A stretch of DNA of 64,000 bases from Phycisphaerae bacterium (GCA_029260235.1 JAJDDP010000080.1:26922-90921); one strand, 5' to 3'; positions 1 to 8,501 are shown, numbered from the stretch's first letter. The notes: generated by a model not told the origin, from the sequence alone. Numbers and translations are program-made.

Positions 1-2164
1 GGCCCAAGAGGGCCAATCCGGCTGTCGGGATGATGATGGAGATCACGGCGCCAGAACTGGTCAGCACTAGCAAGTTCAACAACCGCTCGATGGCGGCGGC
101 AACGCCGTACAGGCTGGGCAACTCTCGACCGTCGCTATATGGGAACCGACTAGTGGCTGATCGCATGTCGCCGATCACGACGGCATGACCGCCGAGCCAT
201 TCGGTCAATTGGCTCGCGTTTGCCTTCAAGGCCTCGCCGTATTCCAAGGTAGCTCCCGACAAGACCTCATCTGAAGGAACCTCGATCATCAGGAGGGGAA
301 CCAAGTCATTCTTTCGGACCCCCGATTGCGGTGAATCTTCATCGCACTTCCAGATCGCCGATGGAGCGAATGACTCGGGCGTGCCTATCCACTGTTTCGT
401 GTTGGGCAAGTCCGGGTGTGGCCTCCAGTAGGCCAAGGTGACTCGCTGGGCATCCGGATCGATATCAATATTCGCCATCGTTCCAGGCCTTCGATAGGAA
501 GCAGCCGCTCCGAGCACCAAGGACATCGTCGGATCAAAAGGGGGCCGCTGCACAGCGAGGTGGTATTGCCACGGTTTGTCTGCCCGCAGAATAGACGATG
601 TACCACCCCAGCGCACCGCGGGTGCGATCGCCGGACTGACGCGGGGGAAGCCTTGCTCGTTGGGCTCCCAGTTGCTCACGCCAACGTGGACAGGAATACC
701 GCGGTCAGTCAACGCTTCGACGCCCTTGCGGAAATCCTCGTCGTACGGCGTCAAAGACGAAAACGACAGACCAAGGGCAACGACCCGCGGATTCGCCAGG
801 GCCAATTTCTCCAGCAAGCGACCGTGCAGGCGGCGGAGGCTCTTTAGCTTGGCCGGATCAACATCCGTCAGCCCTTCACTTCGCGCCAGCCCCGCAATGT
901 CCGTTTGGTCGGTTAGGGCGATGATGCGCACATAGTTCAAGACGGGGCCTGGGGAATTTTGGCGGGCAGCGGTCATCGCCCATTGCTCAAAGGTGCGGCG
1001 AACCGGCGTCCAGTCATCGAAGACGACGCCACCTACATAGTGCGAAAACGTGACCGAAGCGATCAACGCCATTACGTACGCCATCGCCCGATGTCGTCGG
1101 GTGACCTCCCGCGAGCGCATCTTCAGCACATAGAAGGTGCTGTCGCGCTTGGCTTCTATGGGTTCGTTGGCGAGATAACGGCGGACGTCGCCAGCCAGTG
1201 CAGACGCAGATTGGTACCGCCGCTGCATACCCTTAGCCAGGCACCGTAGGGTGATGGTTTCCAAGTCGTTATCTATCGGGCAATTTCGGGAGCGGGAAGC
1301 ATGCCCTGAAGACTCTTGGACACCCTCGCCGCTCGACCATTCTGCTCTTGGAGAAGCCGGCGGTGTTTCAGTGATATGACCTACGACCTCCGTAATCGAG
1401 CCGGTCACTGGGTAGGGAAAGTGACCGGTCAGAATCTGATAAAGAACGATACCCAGCGAATAGACATCCGTGCGGGCATCCATGGCCTCAATTCGCCCCA
1501 GGGCCTGCTCCGGGGCCATGTAGGGCAAGGTGCCCATGATATCGCCAGAGAGTGAAACCATGCTGTCGGCAGGCCCCTCGATCACCTTGGCCAAGCCGAA
1601 GTCGAGCACCTTGGGCATGCCACCAGCCTCAACCAGGATGTTCGACGGTTTCAAATCGCGATGGATCACGCCGGAAGTGTGGGCAAAATCAACGGCTTCA
1701 CAAACCACGGTGAACAGATGCAGCACTTCACGAAGAGCGAGGTCATGGTTGCGGACGAATTGCTGGAGGGGCACCCCCTGCACATAGTCCATCACGCAGT
1801 ATTGCAGGCCACCGTCAATCTCTCCGGAATCGAAAACAGCTACGATGTTGGGATGTTTCAGGCGAGCTACCAATTCGATTTCTCGTTGAAACCGACGCCT
1901 GCTCGTTTCTGAAGCGAGGGCCCCGCCGTGCAAGACTTTGATGGCGACCTCGCGTTTGGTCGATTTTTGATACGCCCGAAACACAACGCCCTGGCCGCCG
2001 CGATGCAGCTCCTCAATCATCTCGTAGCCCGCGATTTGAAGTGAAGAGGCCGTCGGCGTGCTTAACTGGGCAGGGGCGGCCGTACGCGTTTCTAAATCGC
2101 CGCTCGCGCCGGCAGCGGTGGCCTCGAAGAGTTCTGGCTGGTGATCAGGCCGATGCGGATCCAT
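1..2164 (-). CDS. Ser/Thr protein kinase with C-terminal transmembrane CHASE2-like sensor region (partial; C-terminus beyond window edge)
   Basis: Absent from the ORF track because the frame runs off the window. Manual minus-strand translation from the ATG at 2164 gives Hanks-kinase motifs: YEMIEELHRGGQGVVFRAYQKSTKREVAIKVL, HRDLKPSNILV, DFGLAK, GTLPYMAPE. A hydrophobic segment (AMAYVMALIASVTF) follows, then CHASE2-like blocks (VRIIALTDQTD...PRVVALGLSF; HAVVIGDMRSATSRFPY...LYGVAAAIERLL). I saw no in-frame stop down to nt 1. Confidence 0.85.
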   Translation of the reverse strand, partial: MDPHRPDHQPELFEATAAGASGDLETRTAAPAQLSTPTASSLQIAGYEMIEELHRGGQGVVFRAYQKSTKREVAIKVLHGGALASETSRRRFQREIELVARLKHPNIVAVFDSGEIDGGLQYCVMDYVQGVPLQQFVRNHDLALREVLHLFTVVCEAVDFAHTSGVIHRDLKPSNILVEAGGMPKVLDFGLAKVIEGPADSMVSLSGDIMGTLPYMAPEQALGRIEAMDARTDVYSLGIVLYQILTGHFPYPVTGSITEVVGHITETPPASPRAEWSSGEGVQESSGHASRSRNCPIDNDLETITLRCLAKGMQRRYQSASALAGDVRRYLANEPIEAKRDSTFYVLKMRSREVTRRHRAMAYVMALIASVTFSHYVGGVVFDDWTPVRRTFEQWAMTAARQNSPGPVLNYVRIIALTDQTDIAGLARSEGLTDVDPAKLKSLRRLHGRLLEKLALANPRVVALGLSFSSLTPYDEDFRKGVEALTDRGIPVHVGVSNWEPNEQGFPRVSPAIAPAVRWGGTSSILRADKPWQYHLAVQRPPFDPTMSLVLGAAASYRRPGTMANIDIDPDAQRVTLAYWRPHPDLPNTKQWIGTPESFAPSAIWKCDEDSPQSGVRKNDLVPLLMIEVPSDEVLSGATLEYGEALKANASQLTEWLGGHAVVIGDMRSATSRFPYSDGRELPSLYGVAAAIERLLNLLVLTSSGAVISIIIPTAGLALLG

Positions 2165-2334
2165 GGCTCATCTTCAGAATAAGTTCACCCAAAAAGCAAC
2201 CCCGACAGGAACCTACTAACCGAGCCAGCATGCTTTGGCAACATGAATACGCCGACCAGAAGTTAATTCTTGAATGAAAGACGCCCGAAACCACGGAATA
2301 ATCGATTCCCGCATATCGTTCTTGAAAGGCGGCA

Positions 2335-3324
2335 CTATTTGCGCAAGCTAACCAGAATCTCAAACGGGCCGATGACCAACTCGTCGTGATCGTTCAAGGT
2401 GCCTTGGTCTACCTGTTTGCCATTGATGGTGATGCCGTTCTTGCTTTGAAGGTCTTTGATTTGCCAGTCCTTGCCCTTCGGCTCCAACCTGCAATGGTGG
2501 CGGGATATCAGTGGGTGGACCAATTGCCAGGTGGCTGTGTCGCAGGTGCCGATGAGGATGGTCTCAGGCGGCAGGACGTTCAGCGTGGGGTAACCAATGC
2601 TCGGCCCCTTGCGAACAATCAGCGAGATCGGCGGCGGCGTTGGATCTGTGGGCACGTTTTCAGGTAAGCGGCCAAACCGCAGTCGGTAGCCGCCCAAGTC
2701 AATCACGTCGCCCTCGTCCAGAACGAATTCTTTAATGCGGGTATCGTTCACCAAGGTCGCCCGCTCTTTGCTGATCGGCTTGAGCAGCCAGTCGCGGTCC
2801 CGAAAGTCGAGCTGGCAGTGAGCTTTGGATACCCGGATCGATGGCAAGGCGATCATGCACTGCGGATCACTTCCGATGGTCACGCGCCGCCCTTCGACCA
2901 AGTCGATGCGATGGCCCACCATTTCTGGACCCGCGGTAATTCGCAGGAAACAATCGGGTACCGGAGCGGCTAAGCGGTTCTGCAGATATTCGTTCAGATT
3001 GATACCCAACTGCTCGGCCAGGGCTTGGTCGTAGTCCTGCTTCTTAGCGTGATTGCACAGCACGACACGGGCCGTGGCGATTTGGGTCATGATGTCTTGG
3101 ACGCTTTGGCGAATCTGATGGTCAGGATGATCCTCGAACGGCTTGATCCGGCGGAATTGCTTTCGGCTGGCGTGCTGGATGCGTTCGGGGTGACTGCAAA
3201 ATAATTCCAGGAGAAGCAACTGGTAATAATGTGGTGGGCGATCTCCAGAGGGAAGGTCGAGAAACTCGGCGTAGAGATCTTCCCCGGCCTTAGAGCCTGA
3301 GGTGTTGGCGGGGGAATCCGTCAC
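2335..3324 (-). CDS. J-domain protein with two FHA domains
   Basis: 329-aa ORF. Its GTG start overlaps the Hsp70 stop (GTGA). The N-terminus is J-domain-like and includes the HPD tripeptide: HYYQLL...ASRKQFRRIKPFEDHPDHQIRQSVQDIMTQIATARVVLCNHAKKQDYD. Two FHA-like modules follow: RVTIGSDPQCMIALPSIRVSKAHCQLDF...LVNDTRI and ILIGTCDTATWQLVHPLISRHHCRLEP...SKNGITINGKQV. Confidence 0.8.
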   Translation of the reverse strand: MTDSPANTSGSKAGEDLYAEFLDLPSGDRPPHYYQLLLLELFCSHPERIQHASRKQFRRIKPFEDHPDHQIRQSVQDIMTQIATARVVLCNHAKKQDYDQALAEQLGINLNEYLQNRLAAPVPDCFLRITAGPEMVGHRIDLVEGRRVTIGSDPQCMIALPSIRVSKAHCQLDFRDRDWLLKPISKERATLVNDTRIKEFVLDEGDVIDLGGYRLRFGRLPENVPTDPTPPPISLIVRKGPSIGYPTLNVLPPETILIGTCDTATWQLVHPLISRHHCRLEPKGKDWQIKDLQSKNGITINGKQVDQGTLNDHDELVIGPFEILVSLRK

Positions 3325-5177
3325 TCGTCTGCCTCCATCAACTTCGTCAAGTTTTCAGCCATGGAGCTGATCTCTTTCTTCTCGAACCCGGAATTCCGCA
3401 CGATCTCCACCTCGGCTGCCACGTTATTGCTCAGTTCCATCGCCCGTACGCGCAACCGACCACTTGGGTCGAACGTAAAGGTCACTTCGACGGGTGATCC
3501 CTGCGGAAGATGGTCAGGAAGTTTGTCGATCACGCATTCACCCACATAGGTGCATGCAGCTGGGTCTCGACTCTCGCCTTCCATGACCGGCAGGCGGACC
3601 GTAGTTTGATTGGCTGCTTCGGTGCCGAAGATTTTCGTCCGAACAGAGGGCAGCGGCGTGTTACGATGGATGATTCGCGCATGCACGATGCGGTTTTCAC
3701 GCGGCGACCGCACCACTACACCGAGGCTGTGGGCGTTGACATTCCCGAGTTGGACACTCTTGACCGCCTCAGCCACCGACTCATCGAAGATGGGGTCCAT
3801 GTCACTGTCAGAGTCATCTGGATCGAGCGGCTTGGCTATCTCCAACTCCTCGGCCTCGCGCTCGTTCAAGGCGGTAATCGGTTGCCCGCGATTTAGCTGA
3901 ATGATAGCAGCGTGAATGGCAGCCCCATGCGAGACGATTTCCTCTGGCGCAGCGGCCATCACCGGCTCTTTCCCAGAGATGAGTTCGAGCATCTGGGCGA
4001 TGCAGGGCATGCGCGTTGAGCCGCCGACCAGCAGGGCAGTGTCGATTCGATCCCAGGTGAGCATGGCGTCCTCCAGCAGCATCTCGGTGGACATCTGCAT
4101 TCGGGTGACCAAATCGCTGGTCAGTTCCTCGAACTGCCCTCGAGAAATGGGGATGCTGAGTTTTCGGCCCAAGTGCTCAGCCATGATCACTGTCTGCATT
4201 CGCTCGGTGAGTGCTCGCTTGGCCAACTCACAGGTGCTGCGGATGCGGATGGTTGATCCAGGGTCGTCTCGAGGGTCCACGCCGAACCGTCGGGTGAACT
4301 CATCACAGAACGCCCCTAGTAGCCGCTCATCGAAATCGATGCCCCCCAAGCGCACTTCGCCGCCCGTAGCCAGCACCTCGAAATTATTGCTGTCGATTCG
4401 AATAACGGTGACATCGAATGTGCCGCCGCCAAGATCAAAAACCAAGGTTGTGTTGGGAACGGTGGCTGCCACAGTAGCAACGTCAAATTGTTCAGAGCTA
4501 CCGCCCCGCCCGATGTATTCACCAAAGGCATGAGCCAAAGCCGCGGCGGTGGGTTCGTTGAGCACGTCCACCACGCTCAAGCCGGCGATGCGACCCGCGT
4601 CTTCGGTGGCTTTGCGTTTTGTGTCACCGAAGTAGGCAGGCACGGTGATGACAGCTTCGCGAACAGGCCCGATCTCTTTCCGGGCATCGAGCACGAGCTG
4701 CTTGAGGATCAGGGCTGACAGCGCTTCGGGGGAGAATTCTCGTCCGCCCAGCGGATCGCGGTAGAGTTTCTCGCCGATGTCTCGCTTAATGTTGGTGGCT
4801 GTTCGATCTGGATTCTTGGAGGCGTTTTCGCAAGCCTCCCGCCCGACGAAGATCCTGCGATCCGAGCCAATCTGAACAACCGAGGGAGTGAGCACGTCGC
4901 CTAGCTTATTGGGGATGTTGACCGCGTGGCCTTTGGCGTCTACGTACGCGATCGCTGAGTTGGTGGTACCCAGATCAATCCCGACGATGCGTTCCCTGTA
5001 CTTCCCCATTGCTGCAAAAACTCCATCCGGCGGTTCGTGGTAGGCTTGCCGAACCGCAAGTGTACGCAGCCCAGGGGGGAGATTCAACGGCGTGAAATTG
5101 CCGGATGGAGTCAGCCCCAAATCGCGGATGGGCGGCTGGCAATTGGGGTCATAGGGGGTAACACTTGTGTAACTCAA
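3321..5177 (-). CDS. Hsp70-family chaperone ATPase (DnaK paralogue)
   Basis: 618-aa ORF with the Hsp70 nucleotide-binding motifs VGIDLGTTNSAIAYV, DLGGGTFDVTVI and LVGGSTRMPCIAQMLE, plus a C-terminal substrate-binding-like region. The start is uncertain. An alternative ATG at 5009 (MGKYRERIVGIDLG) is preceded by GGAG about 11 nt upstream. Confidence 0.9.
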   Translation of the reverse strand: MSYTSVTPYDPNCQPPIRDLGLTPSGNFTPLNLPPGLRTLAVRQAYHEPPDGVFAAMGKYRERIVGIDLGTTNSAIAYVDAKGHAVNIPNKLGDVLTPSVVQIGSDRRIFVGREACENASKNPDRTATNIKRDIGEKLYRDPLGGREFSPEALSALILKQLVLDARKEIGPVREAVITVPAYFGDTKRKATEDAGRIAGLSVVDVLNEPTAAALAHAFGEYIGRGGSSEQFDVATVAATVPNTTLVFDLGGGTFDVTVIRIDSNNFEVLATGGEVRLGGIDFDERLLGAFCDEFTRRFGVDPRDDPGSTIRIRSTCELAKRALTERMQTVIMAEHLGRKLSIPISRGQFEELTSDLVTRMQMSTEMLLEDAMLTWDRIDTALLVGGSTRMPCIAQMLELISGKEPVMAAAPEEIVSHGAAIHAAIIQLNRGQPITALNEREAEELEIAKPLDPDDSDSDMDPIFDESVAEAVKSVQLGNVNAHSLGVVVRSPRENRIVHARIIHRNTPLPSVRTKIFGTEAANQTTVRLPVMEGESRDPAACTYVGECVIDKLPDHLPQGSPVEVTFTFDPSGRLRVRAMELSNNVAAEVEIVRNSGFEKKEISSMAENLTKLMEADE

Positions 5178-5555
5178 ACCGAACTAGGATCAGCCCACCG
5201 CCACCGTGCTGTGCCTGATGCCACGGCTGGGAAGGGCTGTCCTTCCAGCTTGGTGCCCTCGAGCAAAACGCCCGCTAAGCCGCGGTCGAGGCGGTTTTGG
5301 ACAAGTTTGGCAGCATTACGGACGATGTTCTGTCGTGCGGATGAATCAGCCCAATCAGGCCACTTGGCCTGGGTTTTGGCCGTACGCACTGCAGCGTCGG
5401 TCTGACTTTGGACTTGTCTGGAATGGTCCGGGACGCTTAGATGGAGCGATGGTGGTGGGCACGCACATGAGTGCATCACTAGAAATACGTTCTTGATTGA
5501 AACAAACCGCAAGGATTTTCACAGAACTACGAGAGCAGGAGCATTGGAGACTGTC

Positions 5556-7460
5556 ATGGATCGAAAGACAACAGTTTGGAGCAAACTCACGCGTGTGGCA
5601 GAGGCGCGCACCGTTACCGCCCTGATCGTGCTGTTTGGGGTTGGGACGGGTGTCAACACAACCTGGGCGCAAGATGCCAAACCTGCGGCAAGCGACAAGG
5701 CAGCCGCACCTGCCAAGAGCCAAGATCCTGCTTCGGCAGACAAGTCAAAAAACTCGGTAGAATTGGTCCCGATCAAGGCACCCCCAGCCAACGTGCTCAA
5801 AGCCGCCAAGCAGCGGTCCAAAGCCAAGCCGGCCGTGACGACTACACCGACCGGGCCGGTCACCGGCGCCCCCGCCATCCGCATCGCAGAGACCGTTCAT
5901 GATTTTGGCGAGAGCTGGACGGGCGGCACGCTCGATCATGTATTCCAGATCAAGAATGAGGGCGACCAGGTTCTCAAGCTCCTCTCGGTCAAACCTTCTT
6001 GCGGATGCACCGTCGCTAAGGGCTACGACAAAGAAATCCCTCCTGGCGGCACCGGCAAGATTCCTGTTTCGCTAAACACCAAGAAAGTTCGCAACAAGTT
6101 CACCAAGAACATCACGGTCAATAGCAACGACCCTGCCACGGCCTCGTTGCGGCTTCAGATCACCGGCATCGTCAAGTCATACGTTGACGTCGCCCCGCGA
6201 ACCATCGCTCTGGGCCACATCAAGGAGGGCGATCAAGCGACCAAGTCCTGCAAGCTGCTCAACAACACGGACGGCATGATCGAGTTGAAACTTGAACAGG
6301 CCAAGTCAGGCCCGTTCACGGCTGAGTTGGTCGAACGCGTGCCCGGCAAAGAGTTTCAGCTCAAAGTAACCGCAGCCCCACCTTTCAAGCCGAAACTCAA
6401 CAACGGCAAGTTCATCATCACCACGAACGTCCCCAAGCAGCCCCGGATCGAGGTCCCGGTGACGGCCTACGTTCCTGCACGGCTCGATTTGCGTCCCGAG
6501 ACGTTGGTTCTCCCTTCGTCCAATCGCAACGAGCAGAAACGTTTGATCAAATTCACCAATAATGGCGAAAAGCCGGTCAAGGTGCTCTCAGCTAGCGTGA
6601 GCGACGACACCATTGCGGTCGAGGTGATTGAACGCTCCGCCGGCAAAGCCTATGACATCAAGGTCACCATCCCGGCTGGCTACAAGACGCCCAAAGACGC
6701 CAAGATCATCACACTGGTAACTGATGACAGCGAAAAGAAGGAAATCAACATCCCCATCAAGGGTCGACCGGTCAAGAAGCGTCCTGCCGAAAGCTTGCTC
6801 GGCACCATCTCTCCGACGGCTGAATTTACTACGCGGGCCGGCGTGACCATCAACACGGGAAGCAAGCTGGGCAAGATCACCGTTCTTGATTTCTTCGCCA
6901 GCTGGTGCGGTTACTGCAAGAAGCAGATCCCGCAGGTCTCAACCATGTATACCGAGAAGTTCAAAGACAACCCAAATGTGCAGTTCATCGGGGTCAGTGC
7001 TGACATCCTCAAGACCGAAGGCGTGACCAATCCCCGTGCCCGCACTCTTGAGCAGGTGGATGGCGTCTGGGCAAAAGCGTCCAGCGGTGCTTTTGAGTTG
7101 GCCCTCGATCCAAACGGAAACACCAAGAAACTCTTCAAGGTATCTAGCTATCCAACGTTGATGCTGTTGAATAAGGACGGTAAGGTCGAAGCGGTTCACT
7201 TTGGTGCAAAGGCAGACCTACCTCAAATTCTGGCTGGACAGATCGAAAAGCTCCTGGCCGGCAAGAGTCTTGTCTCTTCAGGACCTACCCCGGTAGCCAA
7301 GCCTCAACCTACGCCCAAGCCGACCGTCGTCACCGTCAAAGGCACAGCTGACGCAGCTCCGGCCGAGGCTGACAAGATCAAGGAGAACGCCCAGCCCGAG
7401 GATTCCGACGCGACCTCGATGGCTAACTATAGCGTGAAGAAAAGGTCGAAGGTCGACTAG
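5556..7460 (+). CDS. Secreted DUF1573-type protein with Ig-like repeats fused to a TlpA-like thioredoxin domain
   Basis: ATG at 5556 is preceded by GGAG (ORF track starts at a TTG at 5493). A signal/TM segment (VTALIVLFGVG) is present. DUF1573 signature: HDFGESWTGGTLDHVFQIKNEGDQVLKLLSVKPSCGCT. C-terminal thioredoxin fold has a redox motif, VLDFFASWCGYCKK...SYPTLMLLNKDGK. Confidence 0.75.
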   Translation: MDRKTTVWSKLTRVAEARTVTALIVLFGVGTGVNTTWAQDAKPAASDKAAAPAKSQDPASADKSKNSVELVPIKAPPANVLKAAKQRSKAKPAVTTTPTGPVTGAPAIRIAETVHDFGESWTGGTLDHVFQIKNEGDQVLKLLSVKPSCGCTVAKGYDKEIPPGGTGKIPVSLNTKKVRNKFTKNITVNSNDPATASLRLQITGIVKSYVDVAPRTIALGHIKEGDQATKSCKLLNNTDGMIELKLEQAKSGPFTAELVERVPGKEFQLKVTAAPPFKPKLNNGKFIITTNVPKQPRIEVPVTAYVPARLDLRPETLVLPSSNRNEQKRLIKFTNNGEKPVKVLSASVSDDTIAVEVIERSAGKAYDIKVTIPAGYKTPKDAKIITLVTDDSEKKEINIPIKGRPVKKRPAESLLGTISPTAEFTTRAGVTINTGSKLGKITVLDFFASWCGYCKKQIPQVSTMYTEKFKDNPNVQFIGVSADILKTEGVTNPRARTLEQVDGVWAKASSGAFELALDPNGNTKKLFKVSSYPTLMLLNKDGKVEAVHFGAKADLPQILAGQIEKLLAGKSLVSSGPTPVAKPQPTPKPTVVTVKGTADAAPAEADKIKENAQPEDSDATSMANYSVKKRSKVD

Positions 7461-7622: not shown

Positions 7623-8501
7623 CTACGGCATGTTCTTAGCCTGGGTATAGCAGATCAGCTTGTAGGCCAACCTCGCGGCGAGGAACTCGGTTACATTTTG
7701 ACCTGGAATCGGGGCTACTTCTACGATGTCCGCAGCGACGATATTCTTCTCCGCCGCCACCACCCGCAGGAGCGCGGTCACCTGGTACCAATCAAGGCCG
7801 CCTGGCTCGGGAGTGCCCGTGCCTGGTGCGTAGGCTGGGTCGAACCCATCAATATCAACCGTGACGTAGACGTTGTCGGTCAGCCCATCCAAGGCGCGAT
7901 CCACCCACTCATCCGAAAAGCAACAATCACGGGCGGTGATGGGCTCGATTCCGTTTTTTCGGCAATAGAGGTGCTCCTCCTTGCACACGTTGCGGATGCC
8001 CACCGGAACGATTGACTCAACATAGCCAAGGCAACGCCGCATCACCGAAGCATGAGAAAACGGTGACTGCTGGTAGGTATCCCGAAGATCGAGGTGGGCG
8101 TCGATTTGCAGTATGGACAGTTTTTTGTATTTGGCACAAACCGCCCTGACCAAACCGCCAGTCACGCTGTGCTCGCCCCCGAGTGCGAGCAGAAACTTTC
8201 CGTCGCGCTCAATCTTACGAGCGGCCTTGAAGATGTCTTCGTTCATCTGCTCAGGCCCGCTCATGTTGGGCATCAGTGGATCCAGAGTGGCGATACCCTG
8301 CTTGTGGAATTCGCGTTCCAATTCATCGTCGAACAATTCAACTTGTTGTGAAGCGGTGATGATCGCGGCAGGGCCTTCCCGCGTTCCGGTCCGATAGCTT
8401 GTCGTGGAGTCGTACGGAACGGGCAACACAACGAACCGGGCGGCATCGTAGCCGCTGAATTTGTCTTCAAGGCCCAGGAATGTACGGGGGATTGTTTCCA
8501 C
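7623..8501 (-). CDS. speB: Agmatinase (arginase/ureohydrolase family)
   Basis: 292-aa ORF with ureohydrolase metal-binding motifs: LALGGEHSVTGG, QIDAHLDLRD, VTVDIDGFDPAYAPGTGTPEPGG. Confidence 0.85.
   Translation of the reverse strand: METIPRTFLGLEDKFSGYDAARFVVLPVPYDSTTSYRTGTREGPAAIITASQQVELFDDELEREFHKQGIATLDPLMPNMSGPEQMNEDIFKAARKIERDGKFLLALGGEHSVTGGLVRAVCAKYKKLSILQIDAHLDLRDTYQQSPFSHASVMRRCLGYVESIVPVGIRNVCKEEHLYCRKNGIEPITARDCCFSDEWVDRALDGLTDNVYVTVDIDGFDPAYAPGTGTPEPGGLDWYQVTALLRVVAAEKNIVAADIVEVAPIPGQNVTEFLAARLAYKLICYTQAKNMP

Follow-up and report, generated by a model that had tools for sequence, protein, structure and literature searches.

Conserved pairing of a lidless Hsp70 with a divergent J-domain/double-FHA adaptor in Phycisphaerae

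Specialised Hsp70s and the systems closest to the present locus

Specialised Hsp70s that work with private J proteins are established, as in the HscA–HscB and HscC–DjlB/DjlC systems (PMC8215388). Here, we discuss an Hsp70 gene and its neighbours at the left end of a 64,000-nucleotide (nt) stretch of DNA from a Phycisphaerae bacterium (GCA_029260235.1 JAJDDP010000080.1:26922-90921). The whole stretch is referred to as the window, and positions are counted from its first letter. Three open reading frames (ORFs), all on the minus strand, encode an Hsp70 paralogue without a helical lid, a protein that joins a J-like domain to two forkhead-associated (FHA) domains (hereafter the adaptor) and a Hanks-type Ser/Thr kinase. 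An initial annotation, made from the sequence alone, had described three co-oriented minus-strand genes, and the ORFs bear this out with small boundary corrections. As discussed below, comparison of related loci supports the Hsp70 and the adaptor as a dedicated, conserved pair, while the triad that includes the kinase is not co-conserved.

In the structure of DnaJ bound to DnaK, the Asp of the J-domain His-Pro-Asp (HPD) tripeptide binds DnaK R167 and Q378, and basic residues of the J domain bind E206, D211, E217 and D477 (PMC8215388). The HscC–DjlB/DjlC system resembles the window pair in that an Hsp70 paralogue of about 560 amino acids (aa) is encoded beside a dedicated J protein with its own targeting domain, and the DnaK D211 loop is missing in both (PMC8215388). 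E. coli HscC, however, has a shortened lid and keeps R167, Q378 and E206, and its identity to the window Hsp70 is 33% over the nucleotide-binding domain (NBD) and part of the β-subdomain of the substrate-binding domain (SBD-β). On these grounds, assignment of the window Hsp70 to the HscC family was rejected. HscA–HscB likewise comprises a specialised Hsp70 and a single J-protein adaptor that delivers one class of client, and the J domains of HscB appear among the structural matches of the adaptor. In contrast to the window Hsp70, HscA has a lid and a canonical J interface, and HscB binds its client IscU via a helical domain. The window protein also scores far below the cut-off of the NCBIfam HscA model.

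A different likeness is found in the bacterial modules that connect Hanks-type kinases with FHA proteins, such as PknB–FhaA/FhaB, PknB/PknG–GarA/OdhI and the type VI secretion system (T6SS) proteins PpkA–Fha1/TagH. The FHA structures of GarA, OdhI and FhaA are close to those modeled for the adaptor, and a Hanks-type kinase is encoded next to it in the window. However, the linkage to the window kinase is not conserved, neither FHA domain of the adaptor has the canonical phosphate-binding Arg, and, unlike the window pair, these systems include no J domain or Hsp70. Mitochondrial Pam16/Tim16 proteins have a J fold with a degenerate HPD and act on the Hsp70 system without classical stimulation. 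The window adaptor differs from them in that it is bacterial, retains the HPD and is fused to FHA domains, and its kinship to them in sequence goes no further than the J fold. Finally, the GTPase-centred GAP1-N2 conflict systems of Actinobacteria and Firmicutes include an HSP70, GrpE and a DnaJ-fused FNIII protein (Kaur et al. 2020, PMC7159879). As in the window, an Hsp70 gene is thus linked to that of a non-canonical J-fused adaptor, and protein kinases occur in some related neighbourhoods (PMC7159879); however, the window locus has no GTPase, GrpE or effector gene.

A translationally coupled and conserved gene pair

The Hsp70 gene (3321–5009, minus strand; 562 aa) and the adaptor gene (2335–3324, minus strand; 329 aa) meet in a junction at 3321–3336 on the same strand. 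A GGAGG sequence (3332–3336) is followed after 7 nt by the GTG start of the adaptor (3322–3324), which overlaps the TGA stop of the Hsp70 (3321–3323). The GTGA overlap at 3321–3324 that the initial annotation took as a sign of translational coupling is present in the sequence. The 5′ end of the Hsp70 gene was drawn differently. The mechanical ORF, which begins at TTG 5177 and gives 618 aa, is over-extended; this TTG has no Shine-Dalgarno-like sequence, and the additional 56 codons (5010–5177) have no counterpart in homologues. The probable start is ATG 5009 (MGKYRERIVGIDLGTTNS), which has a GGAG ahead of it. We have taken this start because homologues of 556–563 aa begin at the equivalent position and an identical protein in the database is 562 aa long. 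Hence, the previous assignment of this gene to the Hsp70 family holds, but its 3321–5177 boundary does not.

Homologues of the adaptor are limited to metagenome-assembled genomes of Phycisphaerae. The closest relative found shows 82% identity and sits on a contig of 1.3 kb. We collected 43 loci, 38 of which have at least 1 kb of sequence upstream of the adaptor; likewise, 38 have at least 1 kb downstream. An Hsp70 gene lies directly upstream and on the same strand in 37 of the 38 loci with sufficient upstream sequence, and the adjacency is seen in 22 of 23 species-representative genomes. The 4-nt overlap is conserved in the subclade to which the window belongs and recurs in L001, L005, L006, L025, L028, L029, L042, L053 and L054; most other loci have an 11-nt overlap or a gap of 2–67 nt. 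The arrangement extends to a distant variant (L041) in which the J-like domain is followed by a single FHA domain. This protein is 33% identical to the window adaptor, and the Hsp70 encoded immediately upstream is 47% identical to that of the window. The dedicated pairing proposed in the initial annotation is in this way supported by adjacency, orientation and, within the subclade, retention of the overlap. Its grouping of all three genes is not: the pair persists in related genomes, and no kinase gene follows it in any of the 38 loci with downstream sequence.

Architecture of the Hsp70

The window Hsp70 matches Pfam HSP70 (2.5e-108), and its NBD and SBD-β match DnaK structures in the PDB. It consists of an NBD, an acidic insert, a linker and an SBD-β (residues 414–561 align to that of DnaK), and its C-terminal end corresponds to DnaK residue ~525–527. 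Among 27 orthologous Hsp70 sequences, the ATP-hydrolysis residues D8, K70, E171, D194, T199 and D201 are invariant. The linker reads V-x-L-x-[DN] instead of VLLLD and is positioned after the acidic insert, which is variable and about 40–50 aa long. The substrate arch is charged, with M404 replaced by R in 26 sequences and A429 by E in all 27. Moreover, every member ends at the equivalent of DnaK 524–527, such that helices B–E, i.e., the helical lid, are missing throughout the family. Of the acidic patch that in DnaK receives the J domain, the D211 equivalent is deleted and only E217 is partly kept. In many homologues the variable insert carries a semi-conserved DG-R-x-[LI]-[DT]-[ST] motif, which the insert of the window protein lacks.

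The J-like domain and the two FHA domains of the adaptor

In profile hidden Markov model searches, HSP70, FHA and Pkinase pass their thresholds at this locus, while DnaJ (PF00226; 16.4 bits, cut-off 27.8) and CHASE2 (23.7 bits, threshold 26.3) stay below theirs. Since the Pfam threshold for DnaJ was missed, identification of the J domain required a family profile together with a structural model. A profile built from 29 orthologous N-termini and compared with the PDB returned almost exclusively J domains, the best being DNAJB12 (E 0.003), with about 35 further matches. The AlphaFold (AF2) model of residues 1–122 has a predicted local distance difference test score (pLDDT) of 84. Its 15 top Foldseek matches in the PDB are all J domains, HscB included, and it superimposes on DnaJ bound to DnaK (5nro_B) with a TMt of 0.81 and a root-mean-square deviation of 2.1 Å. 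Taken together, profile and model indicate that the N-terminal domain (residues 17–118; 2971–3276, minus strand) is a real J fold, albeit a divergent one.

The HPD tripeptide (residues 66–68; 3121–3129, minus strand) aligns with the HPD of DNAJB12 and DNAJB1, so it falls on the canonical loop of solved J domains, as the initial annotation would have it. The J domain with an intact HPD that was described there is consequently confirmed for the window protein as to fold and tripeptide; the part that fails is the match to Pfam, and an intact HPD is not general in the family, as discussed below. Helix II is strongly basic, with R58 and K61 invariant in the adaptor family, for which 36 full-length homologues were gathered. 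Ahead of the domain, residues 1–13 form a Ser/Thr-rich tail that is modeled as disordered (pLDDT <50), and this tail is missing or much shorter in one third of the family.

The full-length adaptor is modeled with three folded domains (pLDDT 89.6). Pfam FHA matches in two stretches (8e-30), and both FHA domains reach pLDDT >90. Their closest structural matches in Foldseek are GarA, OdhI and FhaA, with TMt of about 0.9. FHA1 (residues 125–219; 2668–2952, minus strand), which was aligned to the FHA domains of Rv0020c and GarA and also matches Pfam Yop-YscD_cpl, has the FHA fold but degenerate phosphothreonine (pThr)-binding residues. The GR of the binding site is GS in the window protein, the Arg is present in six of the 36 family members and the Ser of the SxxH motif in four, the SxNG loop is absent, and G151 and H169 are the sole conserved binding-site positions. 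Judged by these residues, FHA1 is probably not a pThr reader.

FHA2 (residues 233–327; 2344–2628, minus strand), aligned to the FHA domain of Rv1747 and to GarA, has kept most of the site: S274 in 34 of the 36 sequences, R275 in 32, H277 in 35, S294 in 35, N296 in 33 and G297 in all. This degree of conservation indicates that the FHA2 site is under selection, and FHA2 is plausibly an atypical candidate pThr reader. The two pThr-binding FHA domains of the initial annotation are accordingly two in fold; the binding residues are largely retained in FHA2, apart from the canonical Arg, but not in FHA1. The matches of the adaptor to Yop-YscD_cpl and TagH were also considered as a sign of a type III secretion system or T6SS. 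This reading was rejected, as the matches reflect the common FHA fold alone and lie below the family cut-offs.

The neighbouring CHASE2 kinase

A 170-nt spacer (2165–2334, minus strand) separates the adaptor gene from that of the kinase, in agreement with the gap reported in the initial annotation. No minus-strand terminator-like site was found in the spacer and no structured RNA either, its fold being no stabler than those of shuffled sequences (z = -0.62). The kinase gene (1–2164, minus strand) runs past the edge of the window, which holds the first 721 of 791 aa; the last 70 lie beyond it. The product is a Hanks-type Ser/Thr kinase with a transmembrane (TM) segment and a CHASE2-like domain. 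The kinase part matches Pfam Pkinase (2.4e-45), and the VAIK, HRDLKPSN, DFG and APE motifs are readable. CHASE2 (PF05226) stays below threshold in the truncated product, where hydrophobic segments lie on both sides of it, but most full-length homologues (37–47% identity) carry PF05226. The CHASE2 sensor kinase proposed earlier is thus a Hanks-type kinase with a putative CHASE2 domain.

No kinase gene follows the pair at any of the 38 related loci for which 1 kb or more of downstream sequence is available, L054 included, which has the upstream neighbour of the pair in common with the window. The closest homologues of the kinase (45–47% identity) are found in other contexts, next to neither an FHA nor an Hsp70 gene, and are followed by an overlapping lipoprotein gene. 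Collectively, gene neighbourhoods indicate that the module has no conserved kinase member and that the gene for the CHASE2 kinase, an independent sensor, lies downstream of the pair in this lineage only.

At three of the loci with a CHASE2 kinase homologue (L046, 5408–9207; L047, 6001–9062; L048, 6001–9131), the overlapping gene that comes next encodes a small lipoprotein, and the products in L047 and L048 share 40% identity. The kinase gene of L046 is preceded by an overlapping gene for an extracytoplasmic function (ECF) sigma factor. The position in the window that would match the lipoprotein gene lies past its left edge. A defence-system reading of the locus was rejected: PADLOC has no match for the Hsp70 or the adaptor, and the PD-T4-6 and Mad6 matches of the kinase reflect its generic kinase domain.

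A proposed two-component machine and its alternatives

These data can be accommodated in a model, which we favour and regard as somewhat probable, of a two-component machine. The first gene of the Phycisphaerae operon would provide a specialised Hsp70-type ATPase with intact hydrolysis residues, a charged-arch SBD-β, an acidic insert and no lid. The second, translationally coupled gene would provide its private adaptor. We infer that the divergent J domain makes physical contact with the Hsp70 and tethers the adaptor to it, and that the two FHA-fold domains select the target. The contact would be rewired relative to DnaJ–DnaK, with the HPD freed from strict selection and the HPD-reading residues of the Hsp70 replaced. 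FHA1 might act as a phospho-independent protein-binding module. FHA2, on the other hand, would be where Ser/Thr phosphorylation by any kinase, presumably one encoded elsewhere, most likely acts on the machine, either guiding it to a client or switching it, and this domain may in this manner add phosphorylation dependence to the choice of target.

Several observations weigh against this model. The residues with which DnaK reads the J domain have been exchanged in the Hsp70 partner: the R167 equivalent is D in 23 orthologues, G in four and R in none of the 27, Q378 is H in all 27, E206 is R in 26, and D477 is mostly R or K. Because R167, Q378, E206 and D477 are all gone, the J-like domain may give no ATPase stimulation at all. 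On the adaptor side, the N-terminus does not reach the DnaJ cut-off, and the HPD is intact in only 18 of the 36 orthologues and in 10 of 26 species-level loci; the degenerate forms include HVD, HPN, NPN, HHD, NPD, APD, NAD, VPE and QHD. With the HPD degenerate in half of the family and an Hsp70 that lacks R167 and Q378, a canonical J mechanism between the two proteins is doubtful. Binding of a phosphopeptide by FHA2 is uncertain as well, since none of the 36 sequences has the canonical Arg after G259 (H in 24, and T in the window protein). Lastly, one locus (L008, 7929–8990) carries the sole adaptor homologue without an Hsp70 gene within 8 kb upstream, the neighbouring upstream gene there being on the other strand.

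Some of these observations also nourish the main rival, according to which the J-like domain is a relic no longer able to activate ATP hydrolysis. In that case the adaptor would serve the Hsp70 as a constitutive scaffold or as a regulator, possibly an inhibitor, in the manner of Pam16/Tim16, or would itself be the main client. Loss of the HPD in half of the orthologues, its absence from many domains of the wider family and from the adaptor of a related Gemmataceae operon (see below), and the replacement of R167 and Q378 in all 27 Hsp70s are what such a relic would lead one to find, and H-to-Q or D-to-N changes in the HPD abolish stimulation in every system tested (PMC8215388). However, helix II is still basic with R58 and K61 invariant, changes such as E206 to R could be co-evolved contacts instead of a lost interface, and the tight operon persists down to 33–47% identity, implying continued selection on the interaction. 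We therefore consider a non-stimulating scaffold unlikely, though it is the alternative to be taken most seriously.

The two-component model also has to be weighed against schemes that assign phosphorylation a more central role. The initial annotation proposed that the CHASE2 kinase senses a signal and phosphorylates a Thr in a client, which the FHA domains bind and the J domain passes on to the Hsp70, an arrangement that could be specific to this lineage. The kinase gene is indeed on the same strand 170 nt past that of the adaptor with no terminator-like site between, and linkage of kinase and FHA genes is a common theme in bacteria. In Gemmataceae, too, a Ser/Thr kinase is encoded next to a related Hsp70 and an adaptor of the J-like WD40 type, which suggests a recurrent link between such modules and kinases. 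That kinase is, however, a different one without CHASE2. The window kinase, as described above, is missing from all 38 related loci even where the upstream neighbour is shared, its closest relatives keep company elsewhere with a lipoprotein gene of their own and in one case an ECF sigma factor gene, and of the two FHA domains the first is degenerate and the second has no canonical Arg. The pathway from kinase via client and FHA to Hsp70 is thus unsupported, and we judge it quite improbable even as a local arrangement. Still less credence is due to a switch of the GarA/OdhI type, in which FHA2 would bind a pThr in the N-terminal tail of the adaptor itself or in the Hsp70 insert and turn the complex on or off with no external client. 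The disordered Ser/Thr-rich tail, the structural closeness of the FHA domains to GarA and OdhI, and the insert motif found in many Hsp70 homologues speak for it. The tail, however, is reduced or lost in a third of the family, and the window Hsp70 is devoid of the insert motif. A conserved phospho-acceptor Thr was considered for both places and rejected, as no Thr in either is kept across homologues.

Related modules and a large J-like family

Lidless Hsp70s more distant from the window protein (41–44% identity) occur in other Planctomycetota, and there too R167 is replaced by D. At two loci, one from a Gemmataceae genome and one from a relative with 74% identity (L050, 1572–6983; L052, 1417–6563), the gene for such a D167 Hsp70 is divergent from an operon that encodes a Ser/Thr kinase, distinct from the window kinase and lacking CHASE2, and a WD40 adaptor. 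The N-terminal J-like domain of this adaptor belongs to the family of the window adaptor (E about 1e-16) and has no HPD. At another locus (L049), the gene for a J-like leucine-rich repeat (LRR) protein lies two genes upstream of that for a lidless Hsp70. These neighbourhoods suggest that lidless D167 Hsp70s pair more broadly with J-like adaptors and that kinases are associated with them in a loose but recurrent way. The full gene row of L049 (1–8741) consists of the J-like LRR protein (P0076, 1124 aa), a PD40 protein (1195 aa), the lidless Hsp70 (588 aa) and a zinc-ribbon/TM/WD40 protein (627 aa).

The J-like domain itself is widespread. Searched against 1.84 billion representative sequences, its profile retrieves 2,602 clusters (50% identity) at E <= 1e-10. 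Members are fused to WD40, TPR, FGE-sulfatase, LRR, NPCBM and other modules, and in many of these domains the HPD is wholly absent. In a sample of the wider family, 26 of 74 members match Pfam DnaJ at E <= 1e-3, in further support of the J-domain assignment. Because most members are below the Pfam DnaJ threshold, domain-based surveys would have passed over this family. Some of the proteins carry two to five tandem copies of the domain, in which the HPD position reads GPH, GEH, GQH or GKH (e.g., P0039, P0043, P0046 and P0049; range P0038–P0187).

Genes surrounding the pair

Upstream of the Hsp70 gene, the region 5010–5492 separates it from a divergent gene and presumably contains the promoter of the pair; it shows no consensus sigma-70 site. 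The product of the divergent gene (5493–7460, plus strand) is 655 aa long and combines DUF1573/Ig-like with AhpC-TSA/thioredoxin-like domains, and the same divergent neighbour is present at L053 and L054. Beyond it, an arginase-family gene (Pfam Arginase 1.9e-73) is located at 7623–8501 on the minus strand.

In 17 Phycisphaerae loci, the Hsp70 gene is directly preceded by two co-oriented genes, one for an MptE-like protein (PF01973, ~645 aa) and the other for an NTP_transf_3/radical-SAM/SPASM protein (~544 aa). These loci are L002 (4556–8124), L007, L009, L010, L012–L015, L017–L020 and L023–L027, and a Leu/Phe-tRNA protein transferase gene often precedes the two. They were considered as a further part of the module and rejected: neither has a homologue in the 64-kb window and both are absent from its subclade, and we treat their presence as lineage synteny.

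Implications for Hsp70 function in Planctomycetota

In the searchable literature, we found no description of an FHA-bearing J protein, of a lidless D167 Hsp70 clade or of a large family of J-like adaptors, the bacterial J-protein survey of Barriot et al. 2020 being outside that scope. The main text of a J-protein survey published in PNAS in 2023 makes no mention of FHA.

It may even be, though this is less likely than not, that the window pair represents a previously undescribed Planctomycetota branch of Hsp70s, without a lid and with a rewired J surface (R167 to D, E206 to R and Q378 to H), that operates with an expanded set of J-like adaptors (more than 2,600 clusters at 50% identity) for which the HPD is dispensable. 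The FHA version in the window would, in this tentative scheme, be an entry point for Ser/Thr phospho-signalling. Because the HPD and the residues by which an Hsp70 reads it are, to our knowledge, treated as universal, a conserved and translationally coupled pair of Hsp70 and J-like protein whose contact has drifted or exchanged charge on either side constitutes a natural experiment on how J domains can control Hsp70s.

With its FHA domains, the J-like adaptor would also be the first indication in the searchable literature of a bacterial chaperone that is steered by pThr recognition. Planctomycetota already stand out for their expanded signalling and unusual cell biology, and the size of the J-like family together with its many fusions to interaction domains suggests that they may possess an adaptor system that has yet to be explored.

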